Part shown: positions 6,630 through 61,767 of the stretch, piece after piece
How the letters are laid out: the number at the start of each line of letters is the position of its first letter
Position numbering within the stretch: the first letter of the stretch is position 1
IMG/VR virus record: IMGVR_UViG_3300022073_000094
DNA: 64,000 nucleotides
DNA from: a virus
Strand: one strand, 5' to 3'
Program-made: the position numbers and the translations under genes
The notes under the pieces: generated by a model
Database searches by the model: none
Told to the model about the DNA's origin: nothing
What the model saw: only the letters and a program-made list of their open reading frames with translations

Positions 6630-6841
6630 ATCCAATAAATCGAGCACATCATAGTGGAAGATATTAAGATATACAGCACCAGCACCAGGGCGCGTACCTA
6701 ATTGGTCGGCATAAGCAAAGCTGCCTTCCAATGATTTTGCGACAGGCATAATGCCTTTTGCAACGCCTTTAATATCTTTAATTGCTTCTCCTCGTGCTCT
6801 TAATTTACTTAAATTTAGTGCTACACCGCCGCCGTTTTTTG
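6630..6841 (-). CDS. nrdE: ribonucleotide reductase alpha subunit, exon 2 (212 nt)
   Basis: SKNGGGVALNLSKLRARGE...RPGAGAVYLNIFH; phases add up (565+212+1314 nt, 696 aa product). Confidence 0.95.
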
Positions 6842-7851
6842 CATTCATGTTACGAAATAAATCGTAAATTTATTCCTTCTATATGTTACCACATAAGATC
6901 AGACTATATTATCATCTCAATCGTTACTTGAGACGCTCCGCGCTTCCATTTAAGAGGTTTTATATTAGACTATTATCATCTAAATCTCACCCATTTGACT
7001 TGGCTGTACTCTACTCAGTTATGTTGCAATAAGTCCTCAAGCGACGTAAAGCTCACCTTTTGATAGTCGTTGCACTATAAAAATTGAAAGTTTTTATTTG
7101 TCTCATCAGCACAATATTTTTTGATCCAATATTTTGAAATGTTTAAATCTTTATGCGCTTTATTAATGCTCTCATATGTTTTATTATAGGCTTTAAGTTT
7201 TTTACAATTATGAATTTTATATGATCCATTAGCAATTTGTTTTTTACGACTTTGACTAATCTTATTGATCGTATCTTGCGAATGTTGACGACCATAAAAT
7301 GGATTATTTCTACCTTTAAAATTTTCTTTCATTTGATTAATCATTTTTTCATACTTCTCTTTAGTCATCCATTCTTTATTTGATTTACCATAAAAATGAT
7401 GATCTTCACCAAAGATAATAGGCGTAATTGATGAATGACTGATATTATATATCATATCTTTATCTATAAATTCATCAATATAAGCTTGTTCGATTTGTTG
7501 TGCAATCTTTAAGTCAATATCATCATTATCATAATCATAATCAATTTTGTGTAAGATCATAAACCTAAAATATTGATGATATTTATTCCAAGCATGTTGT
7601 AAATGATTATTAATATGTGATTGATTTTTAAGATGACTAAAATGATCATTAAAGCGTTTTGATAAACACTTTGTTCGACCAATATAAAATTTATTATTAT
7701 ATTCATTCATAATTGCGTAAATATACTGAGACATTTTATAACAAAGTCCTTTCAATTTTAATAGCTCAGGATTACCCAATGTACATTGGAGTTTCCCCTG
7801 ATTTCACGGAGTGATCGACATATATCACTATATGAAGCTCCCATTAAGCTA
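6842..7851 (-). mobile_element. group I intron 1 in nrdE (1010 nt)
   Basis: exon ends CTC T, intron ends ...GAATG, next exon CA AAA AAC gives L-S-K-N; P7 halves CAACGACTA and ATATAGTCT. Confidence 0.92.
7075..7734 (-). CDS. intron-encoded GIY-YIG homing endonuclease with NUMOD3 repeats
   Basis: YIYAI...FYIGRT motif, NPFYGRQHS repeat; start set at MSQYIY. Confidence 0.9.
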   Translation of the reverse strand: MSQYIYAIMNEYNNKFYIGRTKCLSKRFNDHFSHLKNQSHINNHLQHAWNKYHQYFRFMILHKIDYDYDNDDIDLKIAQQIEQAYIDEFIDKDMIYNISHSSITPIIFGEDHHFYGKSNKEWMTKEKYEKMINQMKENFKGRNNPFYGRQHSQDTINKISQSRKKQIANGSYKIHNCKKLKAYNKTYESINKAHKDLNISKYWIKKYCADETNKNFQFL

Positions 7852-8416
7852 AGAGTTGACGTGCGATACTTTCATTATAATTAATACTATTTAAACTATC
7901 ATCTTCTTCTAATAAGAAACAGCTTATAAGCTCTCCTCTTCTCGCTTTACCCGCATTTTGAAAAGTTGGAGTAGCTGCCTGATAGCGCTGTTCCATCATT
8001 GCACTAATAAGTTGTTTAGCAATTTCTTTATCACCTTTTGCAAGATATAAAGCAACAATTAAAACATGTTGATAATAATTTTCTAAAAATGTTTGTTTGT
8101 CATTTGATTTTAATGCATAATTTTGATAAAACTTACTTGCAGCCATATAACTCGCAAAATTAAAATCAAAATGATTTGTATAATCAATTAAATTGATTAA
8201 TTCTTGTTCTGAATATTGTTTAAATACATTATAATAAAAATTATGATCAACTAAATAATGCAGACGATCTAATTCATTATCAAAATGCATTGAATGTTCA
8301 TCAACGTATTTTAAATATTCTTGTAAAGCTTCTTTATCTTTTTCAATTTTAAAGAAACCCATACCATCATTATGACGTTGTGTAATTTCATTATTTAGTT
8401 CTATAAAGTTTGTCAA
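7852..8416 (-). CDS. nrdE: ribonucleotide reductase alpha subunit, exon 1
   Basis: IELNNEIT, YMAASKFY, ATPTFQNAGKARRGELISCFLL; probable TTG start at 8416 after RBS GAAAGGA. Confidence 0.93.
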
Positions 8417-8765
8417 GTTGATCGATCCTTTCATTAAATAATTTAACATCTTTATCTTGTCCTCTTAACTCAAATTTTAAGAGAAGAGGAACATTAAATT
8501 CTTGAGATATATTATGACCTGCTTTAGCAAATCTCTCACCCCAATTTCTATTTCCACTTGAAGCAACACCTACAAGATAATTTGAATGAGATCTTAAGAA
8601 GTTTAAAACAGGCTCAGGCGTCTCTCCAAATTTAACAGTGCCAGTGACAATCACAAATGGTTCATTTACTTCTTTAACGTTTTCAATATTTTCAACTTGA
8701 GATTGACCTGTATGTTTTAAAAATGATTCACAATTGCCTGTCATTGAATAGTAATAAATTTTCAT
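8391..8765 (-). CDS. nrdI: class Ib RNR flavodoxin
   Basis: YYSMTGN, GVASSGNRNWG, KFELRG motifs. Confidence 0.95.
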   Translation of the reverse strand: MKIYYYSMTGNCESFLKHTGQSQVENIENVKEVNEPFVIVTGTVKFGETPEPVLNFLRSHSNYLVGVASSGNRNWGERFAKAGHNISQEFNVPLLLKFELRGQDKDVKLFNERIDQLDKLYRTK

Positions 8766-8776
8766 AATTAATCACC

Positions 8777-9751
8777 TTATTCTCTATCACTAAAATCAAA
8801 ATCATCATCACTCAATTCACTTACGTTTAAAGCAAGTGTATAGCCATCACCTTTTGTTGAAAAGAAATCATGATTTTTAGTTGAAGTATCTAACGCATTT
8901 TCCACAATTGGATTAAAGCCTTCTTCTTTAAAATAGGGATCAAATCCTAAATTTGCAAGCGCTTTATTACCATTATAGTGTAAATATTGAATGACATCTA
9001 ATGAAAGATTAATATCATCATATAACATATGCGTATACGATACTTCATTTTGATATAGCTGATCAAACATTTGATACATCTCTTTGTCAGCTTTTATTTG
9101 TTCTTCTTTAGTCAGTTCTTTATAAATCTCTTGTGCATCTGCCCCTACAAAACTCCCATGTATCGACTCATCTAGCATAATCTTACGTATAATCTCACCT
9201 GATGTTGTCATTTTGCCTTGTCCAGCAAGATACAATGGATAATAAAAACCTGAATAAAATAAAAAAGTTTCTAAACATACACTTGCAACTCTAGCCATAT
9301 ATTGATCATAAAGAGACGCATCTTTTTGCCATAATTTATGATATTTATTAACTATCATTTGTGACTTATAAGTCAAGTGTGGCTCATTAGGTGCCCACTC
9401 GTTAAGCAAATCATCAGTCTCTTTAGAAGGCAGAAGAGTTGTAAAAATGTGTGAATAACTTTTAGCATGAATTTGTTCCATCATTGCCATAAAATTATAC
9501 ACAGCTTTTTTTCTTAAATCTTTTGTATGCAACATCACTAAAGGCATTCCATCATCCGCTTGATGTGTATCTAAGCCCGTTAAACCAGCGAGTGCGTACT
9601 TAAATGCATTTTGTTCTTCTTTTTCTAAGTTCTCCCAAGAAGATAAATCTTTTGACACATTAAACTCAGTTTCAACCCACATTTGTGAGATATTTTGACG
9701 CCAAAAAAGATTTGTTGTGTCTTCTTGTTGATTCCAATTCACTACATCCAA
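8777..9751 (-). CDS. nrdF: class Ib RNR beta subunit
   Basis: GLTGLDTHQ, EQIHAKSYS, FLFYSGFYYP, DESIHG motifs. Confidence 0.95.
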   Translation of the reverse strand: MDVVNWNQQEDTTNLFWRQNISQMWVETEFNVSKDLSSWENLEKEEQNAFKYALAGLTGLDTHQADDGMPLVMLHTKDLRKKAVYNFMAMMEQIHAKSYSHIFTTLLPSKETDDLLNEWAPNEPHLTYKSQMIVNKYHKLWQKDASLYDQYMARVASVCLETFLFYSGFYYPLYLAGQGKMTTSGEIIRKIMLDESIHGSFVGADAQEIYKELTKEEQIKADKEMYQMFDQLYQNEVSYTHMLYDDINLSLDVIQYLHYNGNKALANLGFDPYFKEEGFNPIVENALDTSTKNHDFFSTKGDGYTLALNVSELSDDDFDFSDRE

Positions 9752-13449: not shown

Positions 13450-13499
13450 AAATTTATTGTAAATTAATTATATCTTAAGTTACAAAGAAAGTACATACG

Positions 13500-13757
13500 T
13501 TATGCTAAAAGATTTTCAATGTATTCTTTTGGCTTCATTCCACTAAACGATTCAATAACTTCATTGTCTTTCTTAATGAAAACTGTAGGCACACTCATCA
13601 CGCCATATTTAGCTGCTAAATCAGGATTCTTATCAACGTCAAGTTTTGTGACTGTTAAATCGTCATGTTCTTTATCGATTTCTTCGATAATAGGTGCTAA
13701 ACTCTTACATGGACCACACCATGTTGCGTAAAAATCAATTAATTCTACATCTTTCAT
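13500..13757 (-). CDS. trxA: thioredoxin
   Basis: FYATWCGPCK active site, YGVMSVPT cis-Pro motif. Confidence 0.93.
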   Translation of the reverse strand: MKDVELIDFYATWCGPCKSLAPIIEEIDKEHDDLTVTKLDVDKNPDLAAKYGVMSVPTVFIKKDNEVIESFSGMKPKEYIENLLA

Positions 13758-13821
13758 TATCTTCACTCCTCCTTGAATATTTTATTATAAATCAAAATGA
13801 TCTAAATAAACACCTTTAGCT

Positions 13822-14199
13822 TTAAAAAGTTGGAATAAGTTGATCTATTGTACATTTAATTGATTTTTGACCTGTTTTATCAGTCATATAAACAGGAGTA
13901 TAAGAATGACATAATTCTAACATGACTTGTCTACAATCACCACATGGATAAGTAGGTTCATCTGAATCAGAAGTAATCGTAATCGACTTAATATCGCCTT
14001 TTTTATAGCCTTTAGTGATTGAATGTAACATTGCATTTCTTTCAGCACAAATTGTTGAGCCATAAGCTGTATTTTCAACATTCACACCTTTAATCAACGT
14101 TCCATCTTTCATCTCTAAAATACAGCCGACATGAAAATGTGAATATGGACAATATGCATTATGCTTGATTTCATTTGCTTCTTTATAATGCTGTGACAT
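13822..14199 (-). CDS. cdd: cytidine deaminase (homotetrameric type)
   Basis: AYCPYSHFHVG, NVENTAYGSTICAERNA, PCGDCRQ zinc ligands. Confidence 0.92.
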   Translation of the reverse strand: MSQHYKEANEIKHNAYCPYSHFHVGCILEMKDGTLIKGVNVENTAYGSTICAERNAMLHSITKGYKKGDIKSITITSDSDEPTYPCGDCRQVMLELCHSYTPVYMTDKTGQKSIKCTIDQLIPTF

Positions 14200-14312
14200 A
14201 ATAAAAACCTCTTTCTTCATAAGAAAAAATAGCAATTTCTTAATTACCAAAAATTGCTATTTTTCTATTTAATTAATAATTTAATTTTAAATCATTTTAG
14301 TAATGAAGTACA

Positions 14313-14753
14313 TTAATCAAATTTTTTATGGAAAGTTAAGTGGAAATAATGTTTTTTACCATGGAACCAATAAAAGATTTTTTTAGTAATTTTCTTACCA
14401 TGTTTTTGTTGATGTTCAAATTCTGCTTTTTGACTATCTGCAACTTCAATCATCCATTTACCATCTTTTTTATATGAGAATGTTGCAAATCCGTCATATT
14501 TTTCATATTTATTTAATTTAGTTGAATCTTTCACAATTTTAATTGCTTGACCTTGCACTTTTTTCTTAGCAGTTTGTTGACTATCAGCATTATAAACTTT
14601 ATAAGATTTAGCAGTATTGGGATCCTTCCATTTAGCTGTTGAACTACTATCTGCTGCATGAGCATCATGTGTGCCAACTGCTCCTCCTAATGCGCCTGTT
14701 AAAGTAACTGCACTCGCTAAAACTGTAGATGTTAGTAATTTTTTAATATTCAT
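14313..14753 (-). CDS. secreted protein with Sec signal peptide
   Basis: MNIKKLLTSTVLASAVTLTGALGG...AHA|AD signal; Lys-rich mature part. Confidence 0.75.
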   Translation of the reverse strand: MNIKKLLTSTVLASAVTLTGALGGAVGTHDAHAADSSSTAKWKDPNTAKSYKVYNADSQQTAKKKVQGQAIKIVKDSTKLNKYEKYDGFATFSYKKDGKWMIEVADSQKAEFEHQQKHGKKITKKIFYWFHGKKHYFHLTFHKKFD

Positions 14754-14970
14754 TTTAAAAACCCTTCCTTTTATCAAATTATTTTTAATTGTAATTCTAG
14801 TATTTGATCAAATTACCTTATAATTGAATCATATACTGATCTCTCTCGGAAGTAAATGGCTTTTTTAAAATATTTTTCAGATCTTTTCAGATCACTTTAA
14901 ATGACTCAAAAGAAGGCATAAAAAAAGCACTCTATAATTAAATAGAGTGTGAATTGAAAAAATATAGTAA

Positions 14971-15043
14971 TGAGCCGTACAGAACTCGAATCTGCGACAT
15001 TCTGATTAAAAGTCAGATGCTCTTCCAGCTGAGCTAACGGCTC
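14971..15043 (-). tRNA. tRNA-Lys(UUU)
   Basis: complete cloverleaf, anticodon arm CTGA-CTTTTAA-TCAG, TTCGA loop; no encoded CCA. Confidence 0.95.
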
Positions 15044-15058
15044 ATAATATAAAATTGA

Positions 15059-15133
15059 TTGCAACGAACAATATTTGAACTCACAACATCCAGATTATGA
15101 AGTTGGCAAGCTAACCAGACTGCTTTACCCGCA
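15059..15133 (-). pseudogene. decayed initiator-type tRNA-Met(CAU)
   Basis: GCGGGTAAAGCAGTCTGGTTAGCT...TTCATAA...GTTCAAAT resembles tRNA-fMet, but the T, anticodon and acceptor stems are mismatched. Confidence 0.65.
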
Positions 15134-15147
15134 ATAATAAATAATGA

Positions 15148-15218
15148 TAGGAGTTGAAAGAATTGAACTTCCATCTTTGCCTTATCAAGACACCGCTCTA
15201 CCATTGAGCTAAACTCCT
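15148..15218 (-). tRNA. tRNA-Ile(GAU)
   Basis: AGGAGTT/AACTCCT acceptor, loop TTGATAA; one mismatch at the top of the anticodon stem. Confidence 0.85.
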
Positions 15219-15225
15219 TTAATAG

Positions 15226-15295
15226 TGGATCCTGAAGGTAACGCTCCCTCTTCAACCGGTTATGAGCCAGATGCTCTACTTTTGAGCTAAGGATC
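15226..15295 (-). tRNA. tRNA-Met or Ile2 (CAU) with atypical T-loop
   Basis: GGATCCT/AGGATCC acceptor, loop CTCATAA, T-loop AGCGTTA instead of TTCRA. Confidence 0.8.
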
Positions 15296-15493
15296 CTTAA
15301 TGTAAATCCATCACATTGTAATTAAAGACTAATTATAAGTCTACATTGACTTAAAAAACTAAGACAAAGTAGTTAACAAAATTATTATTAATTTCAATTA
15401 ATAATTAAAAAGGTTATAATAAAATAACCTACATGAAATTTATTGTATTAATTATAAATAAAGTTATGCACTCTATTTATAAAATAAATTTAA

Positions 15494-15564
15494 CTGCTGA
15501 ACAAGGGATCGAACCTCGATTACTAGATCCAAATTCTAGTGTCTTACCATTAGACCATTCAGCA
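15494..15564 (-). tRNA. tRNA-Gln(UUG)
   Basis: TGCTGAA/TTCAGCA acceptor (U1-A72), CTAGA-ATTTGGA-TCTAG anticodon arm. Confidence 0.88.
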
Positions 15565-15575
15565 TTAATAAAAAG

Positions 15576-15649
15576 CGGTTCTGATGGGATTTGAACCCAC
15601 GATCTCTTGCGTGACAAGCAAGTGTGTTAAACCACTTCACTACAGAACC
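15576..15649 (-). tRNA. tRNA-Asp(GUC)
   Basis: GGTTCTG/CAGAACC acceptor, CTTGC-TTGTCAC-GCAAG anticodon arm, G73. Confidence 0.93.
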
Positions 15650-15653
15650 ATAA

Positions 15654-15729
15654 CTGTCGAGGTGAGGATCGAACTCACAATAAGACCTGATTAACAGTCA
15701 GGCGCGTCTACCAATTTCGCCACTCGACA
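15654..15729 (-). tRNA. tRNA-Asn(GUU)
   Basis: TGTCGAG/CTCGACA acceptor (U1-A72), CCTGA-CTGTTAA-TCAGG anticodon arm, G73, 7-nt variable loop. Confidence 0.9.
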
Positions 15730-17883: not shown

Positions 17884-18071
17884 TTTATTTGCTTCCTTTC
17901 AATCTTCTAATTTTATTTTATATAAAAATAATATCATAATACTAATTTTAAGTAAATAATAAAGATCTTACTTGATAACATGTAAGATCTCTATAGTAAG
18001 ACAATCAAATCAAATTAATAAAACTAATATGAAATTATATCTTAACTTTATTTATAATGTTTGACTTACTA

Positions 18072-30378: not shown

Positions 30379-30585
30379 TTTTTGCATAAAAAAAGAGATG
30401 CACTTATCATGTGCATCTTGTGAATTTAAGATAAAAAATTGGGATAGATTGTGCAAAATCAAACATTAAACGATTTAATAATAATATTAATATATTTATA
30501 ATTGTAAATTATATTGATCAATATGTACACGATTATTAATCAATTATATTTAAATGATAAGATACGTATAAAGGAGGGATTTATT

Positions 30586-32358
30586 GTGCAGAATCAAGAA
30601 TTAGATGATTTACACAATGACATTAAAGAAGAAGTTGATAAAATCTTGAAGAAACATAAACTACAAGGACAAGCTAATAGAAAGATTAATGAAAATGATA
30701 TAGGTTGGATCTTATTAAAAGCTTGCGATATTGTGTATATTGATTATTCTGTTGAAAAAGACATGTCGGTATATACTTATGCAATTTATAATCCTAAAGT
30801 TCAAGGTTATGTAAGAGATACAAACTTTTTAAATGATCTTATTCAACTTATAATATTGAATTATCCTGATTATGTTAAAACAACTGCTAATCGGGCGCTT
30901 AAAGATGTTGATAATTATATTAAACATTCTAAGACAGAAATTAGAATTGCGAACTTACCCCCTCAACATCTTGTTAAGATGCAAAATTGTATTGTTAATT
31001 TAAAAACCAAAGAAACATATGATTTTGATGATGATGCTGTTAAAGACTATGATTTTATTGATTCAATTCGATATTCATTATATAGACCTGAAGATGTTGA
31101 TCAATGGAGTTTAAATGTTGTAAAATCAATTATGAAAGATTGGTCTCAAGGAAAAGAAGATATTGAAAAATTTATGCGTCAAATTGCTTTTTCATTTATT
31201 GAAGGTGATGGCCGAGGTGTACAAATTATTTTAAAATCTGAAGGTGGAGATGGAAAATCAACATTTAATCGTATTATATCTAAATTAAGTGATCCTTCAT
31301 CTACAGTTACAATTAATTTAGATGAATATAATGATGATAATATTATGAATAAGATTCAGCCAAGTACAAAATTTATAATGGGTGATGATTTAAGTTCTAA
31401 TTTTAGCATGTCTAAAAAAGCACTTGCTCGATTTAAATCATTAGTTGATGGCGGACCTATTAATGTAAATGAGAAATTCATGCCAAGTAAAACAATTAGT
31501 TCTAAGGCATTAAAAGTTCAAAATACAAATACACATATTAAAGTCTTTGAAAATAACGCTGCAATTAAATCACGTATTATTTTATTTGAATGGCCACATT
31601 ATGATTTTAGACAAAATCCGACTTTAGAGTTTAATTTAGATGACTTAAGTGGTAAATATGGGCCCGCTAATAAAAAATTTATGGAAGCATTTTTAGCATA
31701 TATTATTTATTATACTGAGTATTTTAAAAAATTTAGTGTAACAGATAAAATGAAAGAAGATCTTGAACAAGCATTAGATGATAATGATACAATTCTTCAG
31801 CATTTTTATGAATTAGAAGAAATGGGTGCTCTTAAATATGATATGTTACCATATAGTGTCTTATATTCTCATTATAAAGATTGGTTATTGACAACAAATC
31901 CTGGTTCTAAGCCTTTAAAACAAGTTGAATATACAAAAAGAATGAAACAAAATTTAGTTAAAGAAGGCTATACTGAGAATACAAAAAGAAAGATTGATAA
32001 TATTGATAAAAAAGATTTTAATCCAAATTTATTTGAAAATATTCAATATGATGATTCAAAACGTTCTAATATTGCGTATCGTCCTCCTCTTAACATTGAA
32101 GAGCATTTAGATCAGTTTGAAAAAGATTTAGAGCAGCTTGATTATGTTACAATGAAAGATAAATATAGTGATCGCTTTGTGCAACAATATATTAATAATC
32201 TATTTGAATATAATAAGACTGATATTATGCTTATTTTTTCTAAATTTGATTATACAACGGCCGACGTATTACAACTTAGTCCTGATCAAGCTTTAAAATG
32301 CTTACTAGGCTATCATCAAATGAAAACACTTGAAGAAGTAGAATTAGTGAATGATTAA
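30586..32358 (+). CDS. D5_N + SF3 helicase replication initiator (P4 alpha/SaPI Rep-like), copy 1
   Basis: Walker A GGDGKST, Walker B MGDD, motif C NTN; no primase domain recognised; GTG start at 30586 after AAGGAGG aligns with copy 2. Confidence 0.85.
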   Translation: MQNQELDDLHNDIKEEVDKILKKHKLQGQANRKINENDIGWILLKACDIVYIDYSVEKDMSVYTYAIYNPKVQGYVRDTNFLNDLIQLIILNYPDYVKTTANRALKDVDNYIKHSKTEIRIANLPPQHLVKMQNCIVNLKTKETYDFDDDAVKDYDFIDSIRYSLYRPEDVDQWSLNVVKSIMKDWSQGKEDIEKFMRQIAFSFIEGDGRGVQIILKSEGGDGKSTFNRIISKLSDPSSTVTINLDEYNDDNIMNKIQPSTKFIMGDDLSSNFSMSKKALARFKSLVDGGPINVNEKFMPSKTISSKALKVQNTNTHIKVFENNAAIKSRIILFEWPHYDFRQNPTLEFNLDDLSGKYGPANKKFMEAFLAYIIYYTEYFKKFSVTDKMKEDLEQALDDNDTILQHFYELEEMGALKYDMLPYSVLYSHYKDWLLTTNPGSKPLKQVEYTKRMKQNLVKEGYTENTKRKIDNIDKKDFNPNLFENIQYDDSKRSNIAYRPPLNIEEHLDQFEKDLEQLDYVTMKDKYSDRFVQQYINNLFEYNKTDIMLIFSKFDYTTADVLQLSPDQALKCLLGYHQMKTLEEVELVND

Positions 32359-32737: not shown

Positions 32738-32766
32738 TTTACTCTTTACTAGTACTATGATATTAT
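32738..32766 (+). promoter_or_regulatory. family promoter TTTACW-N6-TAGTAYYATGR-TAYTAT (example; 15 or more copies in the window)
   Basis: plus: 32738, 35906, 37842, 38793, 41384, 44397, 53085, 54917, 56746, 62972; minus: ~11070, ~17930, 19651, ~25850, 58546, 62319, 62578, 62774; usually a 17-bp spacer with extended -10 TG. Confidence 0.85.
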
Positions 32767-32813: not shown

Positions 32814-33539
32814 ATGAATTTAATTCAAAGTGATGCGACACAATTTCATATTATTGTCATTGGAGCAGGCGGGACTGGAGGCTGGCTAGCCAGCTTTATT
32901 GATCGCTTAAATGACATAGACGGAAAAGAACTAATTACGACAATTATTGATGGCGATATTGTTGAGCAAAAAAATTTAAAACGACAAAACTTTTTAAAGC
33001 AAGATGTGAATCATAATAAAGCTGAAGTAATTGGATCTCGTTATCATTTTACTAATATTATTTCACAATTTTTAAAAAAACCTGACGAGTTAAAACAAGT
33101 TGTTGAGTCAATGCCACAAGCTCAGCCTATTATTGTAGGAGCAGTTGATAATAATGCATCTCGTTTACTTGTTAAAGAATTTATTGATGCATATGAAGAA
33201 TCAATTTTATGGATTGATGCAGGTAATTCAGAGCGAGATGGTCAAGTCATTACATCATTTAAAGAAGACGGTGAGTATGTTGAAGGATTTAAAGATCCAT
33301 TTATATTAAAGCCTGAATTAAATGATACAGCAGGAGATAATCGTCATCCTGATGATATTTCATGTGCTGAGCAAAGTGAAAGTGCACCTCAGAATATTGC
33401 AGCTAATATTTTTAGTGCAACAACATTATTTGGCATATTAAATAAATGGATTGCACAAGAGCCTTTGCTTGATAATGAAATTAAATTTAATTCTTCAACA
33501 TTAAGTATATACAAATTTGAGGAGGATCAAGATGCTTAA
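32814..33539 (+). CDS. ThiF/E1-like ubiquitin-activating enzyme (PRTRC ThiF type)
   Basis: IGAGGTGG, DGDIVEQKNLKRQNF, VDNNASR, WIDAGN, SCAE (candidate catalytic Cys). Confidence 0.88.
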   Translation: MNLIQSDATQFHIIVIGAGGTGGWLASFIDRLNDIDGKELITTIIDGDIVEQKNLKRQNFLKQDVNHNKAEVIGSRYHFTNIISQFLKKPDELKQVVESMPQAQPIIVGAVDNNASRLLVKEFIDAYEESILWIDAGNSERDGQVITSFKEDGEYVEGFKDPFILKPELNDTAGDNRHPDDISCAEQSESAPQNIAANIFSATTLFGILNKWIAQEPLLDNEIKFNSSTLSIYKFEEDQDA

Positions 33540-33798
33540 TATTTATAACGAAATTGAATCTTTGGTTGCTTTCCATATCGTGCATGAATTTGTGCTTGAT
33601 GATATTGCTGAAAAATGTAATCGTAATTCAACATTTGATGAGTTTGAAAAAGCTTTATATGAAATGATGAAGACATATGATTATATTATTCATGAAGAAG
33701 GTGCAAGCTGTATGAAAGATGAATTTAGTGAATATTTAGCAGATGTGAAATTTTTAATTGAATTTTTAACAACATTTAAAACTGAAGGAGTGCTTTAA
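33517..33798 (+). CDS. small hypothetical protein
   Basis: translationally coupled between E1 and JAB genes. Confidence 0.7.
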   Translation: MRRIKMLNIYNEIESLVAFHIVHEFVLDDIAEKCNRNSTFDEFEKALYEMMKTYDYIIHEEGASCMKDEFSEYLADVKFLIEFLTTFKTEGVL

Positions 33799-33800
33799 TT

Positions 33801-34877
33801 ATGACAAATCAATTTAATCAAAATAATGATTTTTTTAATACAATTACGCCTATTAGTTTATCATCATCTCCTAATTATGATGGAATTGCAACATCTCATA
33901 TTGTAGGAGGAAATGGTATTTTTACTTATGCAAAAACTCAGCTCGCGGAAAAATGCATTAAAGAAACAGATTATACAATTAATCCTGATTTACCTAAAGT
34001 TGAGCAATATATTAGATTTAATGAACATTTACCTAAGATTCCATTAGAAGCATTTTATTCAATGCTTGCATTCTATAAGAGAGTGTACGAACAAGATAAG
34101 ACTGAGGCACAGATGAATTTTTATTGGAATAAAGATGTATTAAATGAAATAGAAGTTGATGGAATCATGTATGATTTAGATGCAATTTCAGGACTTAAAG
34201 ATTGGGGTAAAGGGTTAATTTCATATGTGCCTATACAAGAAAATTCAGGAACTTTGACAACAACTAATGATCCGATTTATCAAGCTTTAAGAGAACAAAT
34301 GATGCCATTTGTTGAAACTCATTCACACAATGTAATGGCTGCTTTTAAATCTGGCACCGATGAAAAGAATTCATTCGCTGACGAGCTTCAATTGGTCATT
34401 GGTAATATTACATCTCCTGATTTTGATTTTTATAATTGGGTAACAATTCGAGGTAAGCAAATTGATAATTTAGAAGAAGATATTATTAAACAAATTGTTG
34501 AACTTCCTGAAACATTTGAAAATAAATCACTCAATGAATTGCCTGAAATACCTGATGAATGGATGCAAAATCATTCTAAAATGGTTTATAAATCAAAAGT
34601 GTTATCTGGCGATGAAGAGTATTATAATAAATATATTAAAGATCAAGAGCATCTATTTGATGATGAAGAAGATAAATATGAAAATGAGACATCTCATATT
34701 TTAGATTCTTTTACAAATTCGGAGCAAGAAGATCATTCAACAGTCGATGCAGCTCCGGTCGACAACAAAGTAGAAGAAGTGGCAACAACAATCGAAACAG
34801 ACGTAAACGACAAGCAAGAAAACAATTCAAAAATGGGTCTCTTTAAACGCATTAAAAAATTCTTTAAGAAAGGATAA
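33801..34877 (+). CDS. JAB/JAMM metallopeptidase (PRTRC protein A type) with acidic tail
   Basis: E...HSHNVMAAFKSGTD matches the E-x(n)-HxH-x7-S-x2-D JAMM motif. Confidence 0.85.
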   Translation: MTNQFNQNNDFFNTITPISLSSSPNYDGIATSHIVGGNGIFTYAKTQLAEKCIKETDYTINPDLPKVEQYIRFNEHLPKIPLEAFYSMLAFYKRVYEQDKTEAQMNFYWNKDVLNEIEVDGIMYDLDAISGLKDWGKGLISYVPIQENSGTLTTTNDPIYQALREQMMPFVETHSHNVMAAFKSGTDEKNSFADELQLVIGNITSPDFDFYNWVTIRGKQIDNLEEDIIKQIVELPETFENKSLNELPEIPDEWMQNHSKMVYKSKVLSGDEEYYNKYIKDQEHLFDDEEDKYENETSHILDSFTNSEQEDHSTVDAAPVDNKVEEVATTIETDVNDKQENNSKMGLFKRIKKFFKKG

Positions 34878-35887
34878 TGATGATGGAATTTACAATTGAA
34901 CAGTCATTGAGTTCACATGATGTGAGTTCTTTGTCTAAAGTGAATATTTTAAGATTATTGCTTGATCATGATCTTATTTTTATGCAGCATTTTGCACATC
35001 CTTTGATACAAGATGACAGTGATAAAAATTATTATTTAGAATGTTTTTTACCAGGCTATCATCTTGCAATTGAATTTAAGACAAATTATTATTATCAAAA
35101 TAATGATGTGAGACAATACATTAATAATAAGATAGAACGCATACAATCGAATGAACAACTTAATGTTGTTGTAATTGATTTACAAAAAGATACTTTAGAA
35201 AGTGCAATATCACATATTAATCAACGTCTCATGAATTTAACTAAAGATCCAGGCTTAAGTCAGCATTCACAGTTTGTAAGAAAACAAGCGCAAGTGGCTG
35301 AGACAGTTTTTGATTATTATGGAATATTAAAAAAATCAGATATATTTATTCAACATGGTTTACCTGTCAATGCTTTATATGCAGGTTGTGTTGCAATTCA
35401 GGCTAAATCTAATATTTTTCCGTTTATAACATATGATGAATTTATGGATCAATTCAAGTTTTTACTCACATCAATTCATCATTATAAATCAGTTAAGCCT
35501 AAGCATATTGATTATAAAACTCGTATGCAAATGACTGATATTGAGATGAGTGTTTTTAATATGCCACAATTTAGAGTATTTATCGAATCTTTAATTGAAA
35601 ATGATCCATTTATCAAACAGTATTTACATTTAATGTTAAAAGATACAAGTGTGATGTATTATAATGATAAATTTAATCATCATAAAAAAGACTTAATTGA
35701 ATATAAAGAAGAATTTAAACAACTTTTTAAAGATCACCAACTTAAAAGATTAAAATTGATTAAACAGCCTCAAATAGCAGGCTTAATGATTAAAGATGGA
35801 TTAAAAGAACTAGATCAATTACCACGAGGCGAAGTGTATGCGTCAAATCGAAATATGATTGAAAAATACGTTGAAGCAGCTGAATAA
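34877..35887 (+). CDS. hypothetical protein, possible PD-(D/E)xK-like N-terminal domain
   Basis: ECFLPGYHLAIEF resembles a restriction-endonuclease-like fold motif. Confidence 0.55.
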   Translation: MMMEFTIEQSLSSHDVSSLSKVNILRLLLDHDLIFMQHFAHPLIQDDSDKNYYLECFLPGYHLAIEFKTNYYYQNNDVRQYINNKIERIQSNEQLNVVVIDLQKDTLESAISHINQRLMNLTKDPGLSQHSQFVRKQAQVAETVFDYYGILKKSDIFIQHGLPVNALYAGCVAIQAKSNIFPFITYDEFMDQFKFLLTSIHHYKSVKPKHIDYKTRMQMTDIEMSVFNMPQFRVFIESLIENDPFIKQYLHLMLKDTSVMYYNDKFNHHKKDLIEYKEEFKQLFKDHQLKRLKLIKQPQIAGLMIKDGLKELDQLPRGEVYASNRNMIEKYVEAAE

Positions 35888-35968
35888 TAAATGCTGCTTC
35901 TTTTATTTACTTAACATTAGTATTATGGTATTATAAAACTATAATCTTAATGAGAGCGGTGAAAAATA

Positions 35969-36904
35969 ATGAAATTAGATCAACTTCAATTATCAAATAA
36001 TCAGATTTATGCTGGGTCAGGTTTTATGAAATCAAATGTAACGTCTCAGATGCAGTCAATTTTAGAAGTATTTAAAAATCATGATGAGAATGTAACATTA
36101 TTAAATAAACGTAATGAGATCAATTTAATGAATCGACATCAATCAATTTATCAAGGTTATATTTATTATCGTAAAGCAACAGACAGTAATAGTGACGTTG
36201 TACATTTAACAATTTATAAATATGGAGCACGTCGATTAAATTTACAACTTCCAACTGATGAAGAAGGAATTGACAATGTGTCAGTTTCAGTGATTATGCC
36301 ATCTTTATTATTTGCTAATGATGGCCATCAAACTTATATTGCATTTGAGAATTTTAATCGACCATGGCCTTTTCATAATGTTTTTTCATATGATAATGAT
36401 TTAGATCATCTTTTTAGAAATTCACAATCACGATTTTATGACTTATGTGAGAAACAGTTTTATAAAATTTGCACAGGCTATGCTGTAGAAGGAATTAATT
36501 TTTTTAAAACACCTGAGTTATATATTCATACAATTTTAACTGGTATTTCTAACTTTGATTTATCAGCATTACATGCCTTTAACACTAATTCTTTACTCAT
36601 TATAAAATCTCAATATAGTGATCAATTAAAGGATCAATATGTTCATCTTAATCGTGTTTCATCATTATTTGAAGGCGATTTAAGTATGAATGATTTACTC
36701 GATTGTCATACAGTAAGACAAGTTATTGCATTACTTGAACAATACGTTGTTAGAAGTGAGTATTTAAAATTATTATCTTCTTCTTATAGAGGTTTTGGAG
36801 AGATGATGTATCATAAAAATGAAAATTTAAATTTAATTATAGTAGGTATTTTCTCAGCATTCAATAATCTCGAATTGATTGAAACATTAATTAAATCATT
36901 TTAG
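35969..36904 (+). CDS. prokaryotic E2-like conjugating enzyme (Prok-E2 D / PRTRC protein B type)
   Basis: MPSLLF, WPFHNV...ICTG (candidate catalytic Cys), SNFDL pattern; context of E1 and JAB. Confidence 0.65.
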   Translation: MKLDQLQLSNNQIYAGSGFMKSNVTSQMQSILEVFKNHDENVTLLNKRNEINLMNRHQSIYQGYIYYRKATDSNSDVVHLTIYKYGARRLNLQLPTDEEGIDNVSVSVIMPSLLFANDGHQTYIAFENFNRPWPFHNVFSYDNDLDHLFRNSQSRFYDLCEKQFYKICTGYAVEGINFFKTPELYIHTILTGISNFDLSALHAFNTNSLLIIKSQYSDQLKDQYVHLNRVSSLFEGDLSMNDLLDCHTVRQVIALLEQYVVRSEYLKLLSSSYRGFGEMMYHKNENLNLIIVGIFSAFNNLELIETLIKSF

Positions 36905-36923
36905 TGAAAGGATTGAATCAATA

Positions 36924-37841
36924 ATGGAACAAATAAAATTAAAAGAATATATTAACTCATCAATGAAAGGTAAATTAGATAATCACATTAAACTTAAGTT
37001 TATGACACACGGCGATATTTCATATATTGGATTCTCAAAAAACCATATATTAGAAGCAATTAATAAAAGAAGATTGATTTTCTTACTTCCAATTCGTTAT
37101 ATTGAACCTTATACAATGCAAGTTAGATATAATGCAATGATTTTTACATTTGGATTTATCAATCCTAAAACTCAACGTCGTTCAGTAAGATCTTTTTTAA
37201 ATAAAAACTCATTGTTAGGTCAAGCTCTTAATCAATATAGCCACATGTATAAAAGCATTGAAAAGTCAGTCATTAGCGCAAACGATATATTTTTAAACTT
37301 AAAATTAAACGAAGTAATGAATACATTTTTTGATGAATATGTATACTCAAGTGTCGATGAATTAATACATGCATATAATCTAGACTTTAAACAATCTCTT
37401 ACTTCAAAATGCGATTTATATAAATCAGATAAAAAACATATCATTGTGTTAAATGATTCGATTGATGTGACTGAGACATTAAATGAATATAATCAAGCAA
37501 TAACAATTCTTAAAAATCTTTATTCTGATGATGAATATCAACAATCAATGAGAAAATTTTCTAATCAATTGACTAACTATGTGATTTATCATACACTTTG
37601 TAGAACGATTAATTTTCAAAAAAAATTCAATTTTTTAACATTGTTTAGATCTTCTTATTTTAATTCACAAGGCGGCTTTGATATTAAAAATATTGATCAA
37701 TATGATCAAGAAATGTTTGATACATTTTATAGAAAAATAACTGAAGATAGTATTTCATATAATAGAACGTTTGTTGTCTCATTGTATGAAGATTGTTTAA
37801 TGAACCAACTTTTTAATTTTCAATATGTTTATATTCAATAA
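36924..37841 (+). CDS. hypothetical protein
   Basis: RBS GAAAGGA. Confidence 0.75.
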   Translation: MEQIKLKEYINSSMKGKLDNHIKLKFMTHGDISYIGFSKNHILEAINKRRLIFLLPIRYIEPYTMQVRYNAMIFTFGFINPKTQRRSVRSFLNKNSLLGQALNQYSHMYKSIEKSVISANDIFLNLKLNEVMNTFFDEYVYSSVDELIHAYNLDFKQSLTSKCDLYKSDKKHIIVLNDSIDVTETLNEYNQAITILKNLYSDDEYQQSMRKFSNQLTNYVIYHTLCRTINFQKKFNFLTLFRSSYFNSQGGFDIKNIDQYDQEMFDTFYRKITEDSISYNRTFVVSLYEDCLMNQLFNFQYVYIQ

Positions 37842-37899
37842 TTTACTTTTTATTAGTAACATGATATTATTAAATTATATTAATTGAGGTGATGATTAA

Positions 37900-38772
37900 A
37901 TGAAACTTGAAAATATGTTAGAAGAACATAAACAATATCATATTGATTATCAAATATCTCTATATGATGTAAATGAAGAAAATATTGAATTTTTCAAACA
38001 TACAAATCTTGATTCTTTTAGATCTTTTATAGATATATATCAAAAATATACACCTAGTCAATTTATTGACTTATTAAAAGAAAAGATTGATGAAAATAAA
38101 TATGAATTATATACAAATCTTTTAGATTTTAATGATAATGATTTAGAGCTTAAAACAACTAATGTATTTTTAAATAACGCTCTTTTTGTACTTGTATTTG
38201 AACTTGATGATAGTTATTTTGTTTTATCAAATCAAGATCAATTATATACAAGTGATAAACAATTTTCTCCATTATATAAAGCAATTTATTTAGAAATTGT
38301 TGAGTATTTGCTTGAATTTATTAAAGAAGGTGAAGCAACTGATGATGTCAATGAGATTAATGACATTTTGGATGTTTCTAATATTCAAACTTATATTTCA
38401 GGCGTGCACAAACTTGATCGTCATCTTTTAACAAATGTTGAACTAAATAATCATGAGACAGTCTTTATGACTGATGATAATAGAGTGATTGATTTAAATA
38501 ATAATGAAATTTCATTTGAAAATTATGATCTAAATTATGACGAATTATTTGATGATGGAATTGAACGTGCATCATTTACTCTGAGTCAAGAATCTCACAC
38601 ACTCACACAACAAGAAGAAAATCAAAATCAAGAAGATCAACTTACACGATTAAGAAATGAATTAAATGATAATCAATGGCATCAAGCAACAAGAATTGTA
38701 CAACTCTTAGGTCAACAAGAAAATTATGATAATATTTATCATCAAGCTAGAGATTTAGGCTACGTTGAATAA
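37900..38772 (+). CDS. acidic hypothetical protein
   Basis: own family promoter, RBS GAGGTG. Confidence 0.8.
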   Translation: MKLENMLEEHKQYHIDYQISLYDVNEENIEFFKHTNLDSFRSFIDIYQKYTPSQFIDLLKEKIDENKYELYTNLLDFNDNDLELKTTNVFLNNALFVLVFELDDSYFVLSNQDQLYTSDKQFSPLYKAIYLEIVEYLLEFIKEGEATDDVNEINDILDVSNIQTYISGVHKLDRHLLTNVELNNHETVFMTDDNRVIDLNNNEISFENYDLNYDELFDDGIERASFTLSQESHTLTQQEENQNQEDQLTRLRNELNDNQWHQATRIVQLLGQQENYDNIYHQARDLGYVE

Positions 38773-38876
38773 AAAAAATTTTAGTAACATGGTTTACTTA
38801 CTATTTATACTATGGTATTATATAAATATAATCTTTAGTGATTATGAAATAAATTAAAAGATAGGTGGAATTTATA

Positions 38877-39476
38877 ATGCAAATTAATACAAATCATGAA
38901 ATCAGTACTTTAGTAATTGGTGGACAATCTTATGATGTGAGTTCTTTAAATAATGATGCAATTGCTCAACTTGCTCGATCATTAGGCGCACAAGACAATG
39001 CATCTCAAGAGTTTCATGCATCAACTCAAACATTAGAATTTAGACCTCAAACAGGATCTAAAGGTTCAAATTTCAGTGAGATTTTCAGTCATTTAAGAGA
39101 AGATAATGAAACACATCATCATTCATTTGAAGAAGAAAACGAAGATGAAGAAGCAAATGAAGATTATGATTTTGATGAAGATGACTTTAACTTTAATAAT
39201 GAGTCTGAAGAAACTGAAGAAGAACGTGAAGAAAGAGAATTTCTTGAGTCTTTTGCAATTCCAGCATCAAAATTTAGTGATAATGACATTCGTTATTTCA
39301 AACAAAATGATGTTGATGTAACTGACTTAAATGAACTAATGAATGCAAAAGTTGAGATCAATCGTTTAGATAAAGAATACAATGAAGAACAAGCAACTGA
39401 ACTTGCTCAAGCATTCTTAAATGGTGATATTCAACTTGATGAATTTGTAGCAAGTATTAGAGAGCTAAGTATTTAA
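38877..39476 (+). CDS. ubiquitin-like modifier precursor: ~63-aa Ubl ending LEFRPQTGSKG fused to a 136-aa acidic tail
   Basis: GSKG at 39054-39065 resembles the GTKG C-terminus of Prok_Ub/PRTRC-C modifiers; own promoter; ATG start at 38877. Confidence 0.6.
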   Translation: MQINTNHEISTLVIGGQSYDVSSLNNDAIAQLARSLGAQDNASQEFHASTQTLEFRPQTGSKGSNFSEIFSHLREDNETHHHSFEEENEDEEANEDYDFDEDDFNFNNESEETEEEREEREFLESFAIPASKFSDNDIRYFKQNDVDVTDLNELMNAKVEINRLDKEYNEEQATELAQAFLNGDIQLDEFVASIRELSI

Positions 39477-39527: not shown

Positions 39528-40286
39528 ATGATGACAATTACAAAAAGTCAAAGAAAATTGAAAGATGATTTAGTTCAACTTATGATACATGATATTGATT
39601 ATTATATACTCAGAGACTCTTATCAGAATGATGAATCTAATTTTGAAGAGAGTATTGATTTAAGTTTAAATGCTTTAATTGAGCAAGACTTAGTTGACCA
39701 AGAGATACTTAATGTTTTATCAAATATGATAAATGTTGAAAAATATAATGATCCTAATCAAACTTTTGTCTCAATTGAAAATATGTCACAATTTATAAAT
39801 TTGCAAGGTTATAGTACACAAGCTAACCGTTCATTTCAAGATAAAAATCAAGACATTATTTTAAAGACAATTTTTGAATTATTAAATCATCAATTTCACT
39901 TTCAACTCGAAATAATTGACCAAATCACTAAAAAGTTTGAACCTTTTTTAAGTGATGATTTAAAAAGTCATTTAAAAATTGATATTTATCAAAATACACA
40001 AACAAAGGAATATCAACTTATATTTAATATTGATAGTAATGATGCGAAAAAATATCAACAACTTTTAACTGAATTAGAGCAAAGTATTCAACTTTATCAT
40101 ACTTATTATTATCAATTTATAAAAGCAAATCGATGCTTGTTGTATCTAATTAAATTTTTAAATGCACATAATAATACAGAATTTCAACAAGTGAGTACGA
40201 TTTATTTTCCAACTTATATTGAAATGTTTGACAATATCGAATTTGTTGCATCATGTAACGTAAATTCAAGAAAGGAAGATGATTAA
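39528..40286 (+). CDS. hypothetical protein
   Basis: RBS GAGGTG. Confidence 0.75.
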   Translation: MMTITKSQRKLKDDLVQLMIHDIDYYILRDSYQNDESNFEESIDLSLNALIEQDLVDQEILNVLSNMINVEKYNDPNQTFVSIENMSQFINLQGYSTQANRSFQDKNQDIILKTIFELLNHQFHFQLEIIDQITKKFEPFLSDDLKSHLKIDIYQNTQTKEYQLIFNIDSNDAKKYQQLLTELEQSIQLYHTYYYQFIKANRCLLYLIKFLNAHNNTEFQQVSTIYFPTYIEMFDNIEFVASCNVNSRKEDD

Positions 40287-52407: not shown

Positions 52408-52757
52408 GGGGTTGTTTATTGGATTCGACAGGGCACGAATCGTTCCATTCACAACTCGACTCGCTAAGTCGTAAACGCAAAACAGTTAAAAATAACTGAC
52501 GAAACTCAAGAATTACAAGTCGCGTAGTGTGACAACCTAAATTGATCTAAATAGTGATAGATCTTTTTAGGTTTCAACTTTTGTCACTATCGTTCATTGG
52601 CATACCCAAGGTACCGTGAATCGTAACACGTTGGCTATAATGTGTGAATAATTTGTATGTTTACATGCATTGTAGTAATTATACAAACATGCAAAATAGT
52701 TGTACTACAATTGAATGTGCAATGCTCTGGACAGGGGTTCGACTCCCCTCAACTCCA
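52408..52757 (+). ncRNA. ssrA: tmRNA; tag (A)DETQELQVA at 52498-52527
   Basis: 5' GGGGTTG...GGATTCGACAGGG, 3' GGACAGGGGTTCGACTCCCCTCAACTCCA, G3-U70, ATAACT resume signal. Confidence 0.95.
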
Positions 52758-60021: not shown

Positions 60022-61767
60022 ATGTTTAAAGTGACTCAGATGTCAATTAAAGAGTTAGAAGAGCGACTTATTCAAGAGAAGAATAATGTTAAGAAGAGAT
60101 ATCAATTGGGAGGTAGACCGAATCACCAATTGAATGAAAATGATTTATATCAGATTATAAAAGCTGCATGTGATATAGTGATTATTGATTATTCAGACGA
60201 ACAAGACTTGACAAATTATAGTTATGGAATATATAATCCTAGCACAAGAACTTATGTAAGAGAACGTAATTATTTAGTTTATTTGATACAATATATTATT
60301 AACAGTGAGACATTGTCACCTAATATATCATCTAAGAAAGCAATATCAGAAGTTGATGAAGCAATTAAATTTTCAAAAAATAAATTGACAAAAGCAAATA
60401 TTCCACCACAATACATTGTGAAATTTAAGAATTGTATATATGATTTAAAGCATAAGAAACGATATGAGTTTGATGATGAAGAAGTAAAAGATTATCATTT
60501 TTTAAATATGATTCGTTATCCTTATAAGGAGCTTGCTAATGTTAATCAAGAGATGTTAGAGATTGTTGACAGAGTAATGAATAGTTGGACAGATGGAAAT
60601 GAAGATATTGAAAAAACAATTAATCAAATCATATTTAGTGCAATAGAAGGGAATGGTCGAAATGTGCAAATTATTCTTAAGTCAGATGGAGGAGACGGCA
60701 AATCGACATTTTTAAGAACTTTACAAAAAATTGGTCATACTTCGTTAACACATCATTTAAATATTGATGAATATGGTGATGACAATGCACTTAATCAGAT
60801 TCAGCCAAGCACAAAATTAATTTTAGGAGATGATCTTGCTTCTAATTTTAAAGTCACGCATAAAATTTTATCACGACTTAAGACATTAGTTGATGGTGGG
60901 ATCTTAAATGTAAGTGAGAAATACATGCCAAATAAATTGATTCAGTCAAGTGCGTTGAAGATTCAAGCAACAAATACAGATGTTAAGTTTTATGAAAATA
61001 ACGATGCAATTAGAGATCGCATTTTGCTTATTATTTGGCCTCATCATAATTTTAGACAAAATCCAATAACTGACTTTAACTTAGACATTTTAACAGGCAA
61101 AGGGTGTAAGGCTGATGAGGATTTTATGACTGCATATATCGCAAGAGCGATTCATAAAACTGAGTATTTTGATCATTTTCATGTTACACAAGAAATGAGA
61201 GATGATATGCAAGAAATGCTTGATGATAATGATATAATGTCTCAATTTATGATTGAATTAGATGATTTAGATGTTCTTTCATATTCTCATATTCCATCAT
61301 TTGTACTTTACGAGCATTATAAGCAATGGTTAAATAATATAAATCCTGGCTCAAAGCCGATGAAAATGATTGATTTTACAAGAAAACTAAGAAAACAATT
61401 ATTAGATTATGGATATGATGATTCATCACGCTTATTATTATCACAGATTAAGAATAATCAATTTAATTTTAACATATTTGAAGATATGTACATTGATTTT
61501 CAAAAGAAAACGACAGTTTTTATCAACCATGACTTAACAATTGAAGGAAAACAAGAACAGCTTGAAAAAGATGCACAAGAATTATCAGCAGATGTTTTTC
61601 AATCTAAATATGATAGAAAACAGATCAAAGCTTATTTACATTATTTAAATGATGTGAATGGTCACAAACTTTTAAATCTTTTTCTTGATTCTAATACTGA
61701 ATATACACCTGATCAGATTCATGATATACCCTGTCATGAACTTGTAAGAATTGTTCAGTCTCAATAA
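60022..61767 (+). CDS. D5_N + SF3 helicase replication initiator, copy 2
   Basis: GGDGKST, LGDD, ATN; colinear with copy 1 (NENDL/I..ACDIV.IDYS, QPSTK, WPHH/YNFRQNP). Confidence 0.85.
   Translation: MFKVTQMSIKELEERLIQEKNNVKKRYQLGGRPNHQLNENDLYQIIKAACDIVIIDYSDEQDLTNYSYGIYNPSTRTYVRERNYLVYLIQYIINSETLSPNISSKKAISEVDEAIKFSKNKLTKANIPPQYIVKFKNCIYDLKHKKRYEFDDEEVKDYHFLNMIRYPYKELANVNQEMLEIVDRVMNSWTDGNEDIEKTINQIIFSAIEGNGRNVQIILKSDGGDGKSTFLRTLQKIGHTSLTHHLNIDEYGDDNALNQIQPSTKLILGDDLASNFKVTHKILSRLKTLVDGGILNVSEKYMPNKLIQSSALKIQATNTDVKFYENNDAIRDRILLIIWPHHNFRQNPITDFNLDILTGKGCKADEDFMTAYIARAIHKTEYFDHFHVTQEMRDDMQEMLDDNDIMSQFMIELDDLDVLSYSHIPSFVLYEHYKQWLNNINPGSKPMKMIDFTRKLRKQLLDYGYDDSSRLLLSQIKNNQFNFNIFEDMYIDFQKKTTVFINHDLTIEGKQEQLEKDAQELSADVFQSKYDRKQIKAYLHYLNDVNGHKLLNLFLDSNTEYTPDQIHDIPCHELVRIVQSQ

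Follow-up and report, generated by a model that had tools for sequence, protein, structure and literature searches.

The 64,000-nucleotide stretch of DNA analysed here (the window), one strand of the IMG/VR virus record IMGVR_UViG_3300022073_000094, harbours between positions 32814 and 39476 the genes of a ubiquitin-like conjugation cassette: a ThiF-type activating enzyme (E1), a JAB/JAMM metallopeptidase, a diverged conjugating-enzyme-like protein (E2) and a ubiquitin-like (Ubl) modifier encoded as the first part of a protein of 199 amino acids (aa). We consider it probable, on balance, that the locus is a working, highly diverged cassette of the lineage of PRTRC (ParB-Related, ThiF-Related Cassette; operon type 6d of Iyer, Burroughs and Aravind 2006, PMC1779556), carried on a low-GC phage-like element, in which the modifier precursor is cut by the JAB. 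The core features are the following.

32814..33539, plus strand: ThiF-type E1, 241 aa, with GxGGxGG at residues 17-23 and the candidate catalytic Cys184 (33363-33365)
33801..34877, plus strand: JAB/JAMM metallopeptidase with an N-terminal extension, 358 aa, with Glu102, His174, His176, Ser184 and Asp187
35969..36904, plus strand: diverged PRTRC_B-type E2-like protein, 311 aa, with Asn137, Cys168 (36470-36472), His187 and an extra C-terminal helical part
38877..39065, plus strand: ubiquitin-like beta-grasp domain of the modifier protein, residues 1-63, with an invariant TGSKG end and Gly63 at 39063-39065
39066..39215, plus strand: variable acidic linker, residues 64-113, with 21 D/E in 50 residues, pLDDT below 50 and a length that varies in homologues
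39216..39476, plus strand: conserved helical C-terminal domain, residues 114-199, plus the stop codon, with an invariant block and pLDDT of 81-93

The product of the first gene consists of a ThiF domain alone (PF00899, 8.3e-16), without a rhodanese, its nucleotide-binding loop reading GAGGTGG and Cys184 lying within SCAE, the Cys motif that an earlier reading of the bare letters (the original prediction) had noted. Its best NCBIfam match is PRTRC_ThiF (TIGR03736; 3.3e-21, 75.8 bits), under the curated cut-off of 144.75. In an alignment of six E1s (the window, Bacillus phage WH1, an uncultured faecal phage, a Thermoanaerobacterium plasmid and two annotated PRTRC ThiF proteins), the GxGGxG loop, RQNF, VDN, DxGN and Cys184 are all invariant. 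The closest relatives (~35% identity) are the E1s of jumbo-phage cassettes in which the modifier is encoded as several Ubl units in tandem (poly-Ubl).

The JAB carries an exact HxHx7Sx2D motif, HSHNVMAAFKSGTD, at residues 174-187, just as first noted, and together with the upstream Glu102 (in TEA..FYWN) the complete zinc site of a JAMM/MPN+ enzyme is conserved across an alignment of 17 JAB homologues. The Pfam Prok-JAB model gives no score, and PRTRC_A (TIGR03735) covers the catalytic motif only (0.017, 14.7 bits against a cut-off of 101.8). In phmmer searches, the JABs whose genes immediately precede ThiF in Bacillus phage WH1 and in numerous IMG/VR jumbo contigs are matched at 1e-23 to 1e-28, among them WH1 gp215 (3e-25), which adjoins ThiF; in almost every one of 35 viral loci, as well as in PRTRC, homologues adjoin ThiF. 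The signature HSH..M.AF.SG.D is common to the window JAB and PRTRC_A of Polaromonas. Furthermore, GNG.F and PKIP blocks are conserved within the ~100 residues N-terminal to the catalytic Glu, as is a Trp in FYWN; this N-terminal region fits, as judged from its sequence, the JAB-N extension of operon type 6d, though the 'strictly conserved Arg' was not identified.

The 311-aa protein, earlier assigned as an E2 for its WPFHNV...ICTG, has few homologues and no match in Pfam, PHROG, NCBIfam or PADLOC; the assignment gains ground from comparison with its relatives. WPFHNV occupies residues 133-138 and Cys168 lies in ICTG. No substitution occurs at N137, C168, G170, N195 or D197 in 11 homologues with identities as low as 20%, and His187, in the helix after Cys168, is invariant in the six closest homologues and lost in the most distant. 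By motif scanning, P-[FL]-x-N-[VM]-[FY] followed, after a short spacer, by C-x-G was detected in a protein adjoining JAB-ThiF in 16 loci, both annotated PRTRC_B proteins among them; the window protein has the same motif plus a 22-residue insert. Profile-profile comparison (hhalign) of the window family with an alignment of PRTRC_B-like proteins that includes the two annotated ones gives Prob 84-85% and E ~7e-6, lining up N137, C168 and the downstream LLT..SN.DL block, and the PRTRC_B-like HMM directly matches the member of the window family in relative L047 (0.0035). In three divergent lineages (L045, L046 and L047) the E2-like gene lies no more than 6 kb from ThiF. A structural check had been proposed at the outset. 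An AlphaFold model (pTM 0.81) shows a helix at the N-terminus, a beta-meander, the loop with the Cys, and helices; in AFDB clusters it matches a 'UBC core' entry with probability 0.98 (E 0.08), and ~29 of the top 50 entries of an exhaustive structural aligner are of UBC/E2 fold (including Ubc8, UbcH5, a Bub complex chain, CdnG-E2 and Atg3), whereas Foldseek against the PDB returned no usable match. On these sequence and model comparisons, the protein is read as a real but very diverged E2.

The weak E2 fold scores, together with matches of the ThiF and MoeB models to the E1 (4.9e-11 and weaker), would also suit a sulphur-carrier/adenylation pair (as in ThiF-ThiS or MoeB-MoaD) serving a cofactor, tRNA thiolation or a peptide, the 311-aa protein then being no E2. 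Such a pair appears very improbable in the face of PRTRC_ThiF being the better match by ten orders of magnitude, of a JAB and a Cys-bearing PRTRC_B-like protein recurring with ThiF in dozens of loci, and of a G-x-K-G modifier tail that is of the Prok_Ub family; moreover, no sulphurtransferase or rhodanese partner was found.

The modifier gene (38877-39476) has the composition foreseen for it, with residues 1-63 terminating in LEFRPQTGSKG and running on into a 136-aa acidic tail (44 D/E against 10 K/R, pI 4.05). Homologues of the 199-aa protein fall in 45 clusters at 41-100% identity, all full length. An alignment of 19 of them resolves a conserved N-terminal domain with an invariant P-x-T-G-S-K-G, an acidic linker of variable length and a conserved C-terminal domain with the invariant block LESF.IPA..FS...YF.Q..DVT. 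The structural model agrees with this division, showing a bb-a-bb fold (b, strand; a, helix) at residues 1-59 (pLDDT 78-87), disorder at 60-108 and a confident helical C-terminal domain. Two structure libraries support the beta-grasp assignment: in AFDB clusters the top match of the Ubl model is 'PRTRC system protein C', with two more in the top 30 and several matches of 61-81 aa terminating exactly opposite residue 63, and the ESM Atlas search returned a Prok_Ub cluster together with a viral cluster of 57 aa (TM 0.65 by the hit). Foldseek against the PDB returned only protein G/L-type bb-a-bb domains for the Ubl, and structure searches with the helical C-terminal domain gave generic helical-hairpin matches only, with no specific fold.

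The point after Gly63, originally proposed as the processing site, coincides with the end of the tag in relatives. The best evidence for this domain boundary comes from L047 and L048, two separate assemblies of one divergent relative, in which a free 56-aa Ubl gene (L047:11905-12075; also in L048) stops immediately after ...QVGSKG and an adjoining paralogue (L047:12161-12646; also in L048) encodes a near-identical Ubl followed by an acidic linker and the same C-terminal domain; the two also form a natural pair for asking whether the fused form gets processed. A second line of evidence is provided by tandem genes. In Bacillus phage vB_BceM_WH1, gp211 (L001:2778-3677) comprises five tandem 57-aa units, each with an IEFKVQAGTKG end, and lies upstream of a 509-aa protein, E2-like gp214, JAB gp215 and ThiF gp216; it is annotated as a 'virion structural protein' though it is made of Prok_Ub units. 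Such a tandem gene was found in only three cultured phages (WH1, Edson and KLEB27-3); in IMG/VR jumbo contigs there are four or six tandem units, and one contig has a single free unit with AGTKG followed by a stop. The tandem proteins match Pfam Prok_Ub well over threshold (3.4e-27, 7.9e-30), and hhalign pairs the window Ubl family end-to-end with their Prok_Ub-positive units (P 2.9e-4), both sharing the G-[ST]-K-G end. Their junctions are GTKG followed by Ala or Gly, and the residue after GSKG in the window family is likewise small (Ser, Ala, Val, Thr). Since both the free paralogue and the poly-Ubl junctions end at this point, Gly63 is, by sequence comparison, a natural C-terminus of the tag.

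A simple sequence of events can be proposed for the cassette. The modifier would be translated as the 199-aa precursor and cut by the JAB after Gly63 of TGSKG, to yield a beta-grasp tag of 63 aa, its C-terminal Gly reactive, and equal amounts of the 136-aa acidic, partly helical protein, which may act on its own. The E1 would adenylate Gly63 and probably take the tag onto Cys184, from where it would pass to Cys168 of the E2-like protein and then to lysines of target proteins; the JAB may also take the tag off again. A precedent exists in the Bil system (BilABCD), in which the JAB enzyme BilC pre-processes the Ubl to expose the reactive Gly and also cuts a Ubl-GFP fusion after it, E1 and E2 then conjugating the Ubl to lysines (PMC10557695). 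Because BilC cuts such a fusion, JAB cleavage followed by an E1-E2-lysine relay is the most economical reading of the window cassette. Modelling of the E1-Ubl complex, suggested at the start as a check, gave qualified support: the prediction scored 0.47 against 0.00 for the best control and placed Ubl residues 56-63 in the GxGGxG nucleotide-binding/Asp site of the E1, the expected geometry, but the tool grades the result only as 'weak support'. In calibration the same mark is reached by 58 of 80 solved complexes and 2 of 110 mismatched pairs, with scores of 0.60 or less comprising only 7 of the 80 solved complexes but both mismatches; these counts apply only approximately to the E1-Ubl pair because the alignment was user-supplied.

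Several observations weigh against a working cassette with a cleaved precursor. The PRTRC_B, PRTRC_C and Prok_Ub HMMs, used directly, miss the window E2 and Ubl, with Prok_Ub (PF14454) and PRTRC C giving no match to the Ubl even at E 10; the window Ubl HMM on its own likewise fails to reach phage poly-Ubls (E 3) or, by hhalign, PRTRC C (0.11). All fold matches of the E2 model have Z of 4.0 or below, single rows not being significant by the tool's standard. Relatives L041-L043 have no E2 homologue in the syntenic slot, though E1, JAB, fused Ubl and neighbours are kept; the slot holds instead an unrelated, basic 114-aa ORF (L041:7681-8025; also in L042), L041 being a relative ~50-60% identical. 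The E1-Ubl prediction may be a recall of solved E1-Ubl complexes, and literature searches on phage poly-Ubl or PRTRC function returned nothing relevant, with no biochemical data found for the window cassette or any PRTRC cassette.

Finally, a free Ubl and a fused one occur together in L047, which could mean that the tag does not come from the fused form. This, along with the occurrence of the same pair in L048 and a C-terminal domain as strongly conserved as the Ubl, is what would be expected if the 199-aa protein were never cut, serving as a Ubl-domain adaptor or, with its tag end blocked at the C-terminus, as a regulator or decoy whose helical domain docks on E1, E2 or JAB, the true modifier being a free Ubl encoded elsewhere in the genome; the window, at 64 kb, is probably part of a larger genome. 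We nevertheless regard an uncut protein as unlikely. The Ubl HMM detects no further Ubl in the window; in L041-L043, L045 and L046 the only Ubl seen beside the cassette is the fused one; and the invariant TGSKG with a small next residue resembles the poly-Ubl junctions, which need cutting for a usable tag.

Should the precursor be cleaved, the fusion may serve a purpose of its own. It is possible, although we advance it only tentatively, that the element uses a ubiquitin-fusion strategy which arose independently of eukaryotes, one JAB cut arming the tag and releasing a strongly acidic helical effector in equimolar amount. Such an effector might, for instance, mimic DNA or a protein and target the host or replication of the element itself. 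If so, the release of the effector would be coupled in time to tagging, and the poly-Ubl genes of four to six units and the free-plus-fused gene pairs would be the alternatives taken by sister lineages.

The cassette has a dispersed layout. The original prediction had split it over at least four promoters of one family, and as a motif these are present: the 29-nucleotide extended -10 promoter-like motif TTTACT..TATGRTATTAT occurs at 21 sites in the window against 0 expected, all co-oriented with genes on both arms (for example at 17928, 32738, 35906, 44397 and 62972), four of them in the cluster. Copies also occur on unrelated contigs of relatives. The promoter-like sites and the further genes of the cluster are given below.

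32738..32766, plus strand: promoter-like site before the E1 gene, an exact match to TTTACT..TATGRTATTAT
33517..33798, plus strand: small ORF of 93 aa overlapping the E1 stop, with a same-slot homologue in L045 (3.5e-40)
34877..35887, plus strand: conserved 336-aa protein between JAB and E2, with syntenic homologues in L041, L042 and L045
35906..35934, plus strand: promoter-like site before the E2 gene, 29-nucleotide motif
36924..37841, plus strand: conserved 305-aa protein, with homologues beside ThiF or E2 in L041, L045, L046 and L047 and no family match
37842..37870, plus strand: promoter-like site before the 290-aa gene, 29-nucleotide motif
37900..38772, plus strand: conserved 290-aa protein, with syntenic homologues in L041-L043 and L045
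38793..38821, plus strand: promoter-like site before the modifier gene, 29-nucleotide motif
39528..40286, plus strand: conserved 252-aa downstream protein, whose homologues immediately follow the modifier gene in L041-L043 and L046

Synteny and sequence conservation in relatives extend to the extra genes (93, 336, 305, 290 and 252 aa), none of which could be assigned to a family, and the slot after E1 holds ORFs of 84-88 aa in L041, L042 and L045. Profile comparison of the five with each other, with the E2 and with PRTRC_F-like proteins was negative, and Atlas look-ups of the 305-aa and 290-aa proteins returned nothing. A language-model match of the 336-aa protein to DUF559/PvuRts1I-like endonuclease families (0.91, few shared features) offers a possible lead to a nuclease.

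The window has a G+C content of ~26%, and its genes are oriented outward from ~27-28 kb. The DNA derives from a subsurface metagenome, while relatives come from indoor, air and mouse-associated samples. Beyond the cassette, the following features characterise the element.

4229-5563 and 7844-8449, minus strand: ribonucleotide reductase large subunit in pieces, with two homing-endonuclease ORFs between them
8777-9751, minus strand: ribonucleotide reductase small subunit (the whole region spanning 4229-9751)
14970-15729, minus strand: cluster of six tRNA genes
30514-32358 and 60022-61767: paralogous pair of P4/D5-type primase-helicase genes (DUF5906)
52408-52757, plus strand: tmRNA-like gene with the unusual tag peptide DETQELQVA

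Thymidylate kinase and TnpB-like genes are also present. Of the phage-like replicon originally proposed, the split ribonucleotide reductase with its homing endonucleases, the tRNAs and the primases speak in favour, but no structural gene was found in the window; because of this, 'phage-like' is the strongest label its content allows, and a viral origin of the cassette is plausible. DNA-level searches with the cluster against phage and plasmid collections gave no match, and an IMG/VR scan with a single protein query gave no relatives. Contigs from four sequencing runs are collinear relatives at ~93-95% identity, a comparison uninformative on transcription.

The primase at 30514-32358 lies directly upstream of the cassette, an adjacency also present in L041 and L047. 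Since the cassette thus adjoins a primase in three lineages, our best guess is that it acts early and in connection with the element's replication. In the PRTRC locus of a Pseudomonas megaplasmid (L005), dnaN (sliding clamp) lies at 13497-14606, ~4 kb downstream of ThiF; this and the primase adjacency hint at a link between such cassettes and replication. The host takeover or counter-defence first suggested may likewise be a role of the tagging. A different possibility is that the cassette works as phage-carried defence or superinfection exclusion, tagging proteins of competing phages, as Bil does, and not those of the host or of the element itself. Bil and CBASS Cap2 do act in anti-phage defence (PMC10557695, PMC10097602), and defence genes are often carried by phages. 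Yet the cassette is a stable syntenic core by the primase across lineages 40-60% identical, not a variable island, and PADLOC matched only the Rossmann part of Cap2 E1-E2 models (4.6e-8 or weaker), a match to the generic E1 fold, with nothing for the other cassette proteins. A defensive cassette therefore seems distinctly unlikely.

The fusion-precursor form and the dispersed layout are new here, and the system is distinguished by a fusion precursor with a free paralogue, parallel poly-Ubl genes and several promoter-like sites. Bacterial ubiquitin-like systems are known mainly as anti-phage defence, whereas here a complete tagging kit would stand on the virus side. Three questions could be addressed with this compact four-protein system: the maturation of ubiquitin-like tags by JAB peptidases, the identity of the proteins that mobile elements tag, and the possibility that fusion precursors represent an old solution that has recurred. 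Such work would be helped by the GSKG tail, as trypsin would leave one Gly on modified lysines, giving a direct mass-spectrometry readout.

Among known systems, PRTRC is the nearest standard of comparison; its cassettes were predicted in 2006 (PMC1779556), and no functional tests of them were found in the literature searched. The marks of operon type 6d are a small beta-grasp protein with a conserved C-terminal Gly, an E2-like protein with a Cys and a downstream His, a JAB with an N-terminal alpha+beta JAB-N domain and an E1 without a rhodanese (PMC1779556). The window cassette has the beta-grasp and the invariant Gly, which is internal in the window and terminal only in the free L047/L048 paralogue; the E2 has Cys168 and His187, and the JAB extension and rhodanese-less E1 are present. 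The two are further alike in the P-x-x-N...C-x-G core of the E2-like protein, in the G-x-[KR]-G end of the tag (...YEFRQGNFGDRG in canonical PRTRC C) and in carriage on mobile elements. Unlike PRTRC (TIGR03734-03742), the window cassette misses every curated cut-off, shows the rearranged order E1, JAB, E2, Ubl, and has in addition four conserved genes and four promoter-like sites; its E2 has the insert and a C-terminal helical part, and its tag continues into an acidic linker and a helical domain. A ParB partner, already reported missing in the original prediction, and proteins E and F were not found among ten cluster and neighbour proteins and ~40 further window ORFs scanned, and the cluster ORFs gave no hhalign match to F-like proteins. 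Because ParB, E and F were not found and all curated cut-offs are missed, the cassette is, by its sequence, a distant relative of PRTRC and not a member; in that form, the kinship first proposed was upheld by profile, fold and comparative tests.

The relatedness to Bil, also proposed at first, stands as likeness of mechanism and not of family: no sequence-level membership was found, and Bil proteins resemble canonical eukaryotic enzymes, with an E1 that has a separate CYS domain, in a host-encoded defence.

Closer in sequence are the jumbo-phage poly-Ubl cassettes (WH1 gp211-gp216, Edson, KLEB27-3 and IMG/VR contigs), which provide the closest E1 and JAB, share the viral setting and likewise encode the modifier as a precursor needing a cut at G-[ST]-K-G. 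They differ from the window in having 4-6 tandem Prok_Ub units, a compact order of Ubl, large protein, E2, JAB and E1, and an E2 without the insert.

Eukaryotic ubiquitin, too, is made from precursors, namely polyubiquitin and the ribosomal fusions UBA52 and RPS27A, from which a peptidase frees the tag at its terminal Gly, cleavage of the fusions also releasing a second protein in equal amounts. Release of the window tag would follow the same pattern. The likeness to the window is in gene layout only, with an LRGG tail there and GSKG here, and an acidic helical protein as the fusion partner in place of the ribosomal proteins of UBA52 and RPS27A. At that level, all three arrangements known from eukaryotic ubiquitin genes recur among the modifier genes of the window and its relatives: a free tag, tandem poly-units and a fusion to a second protein.

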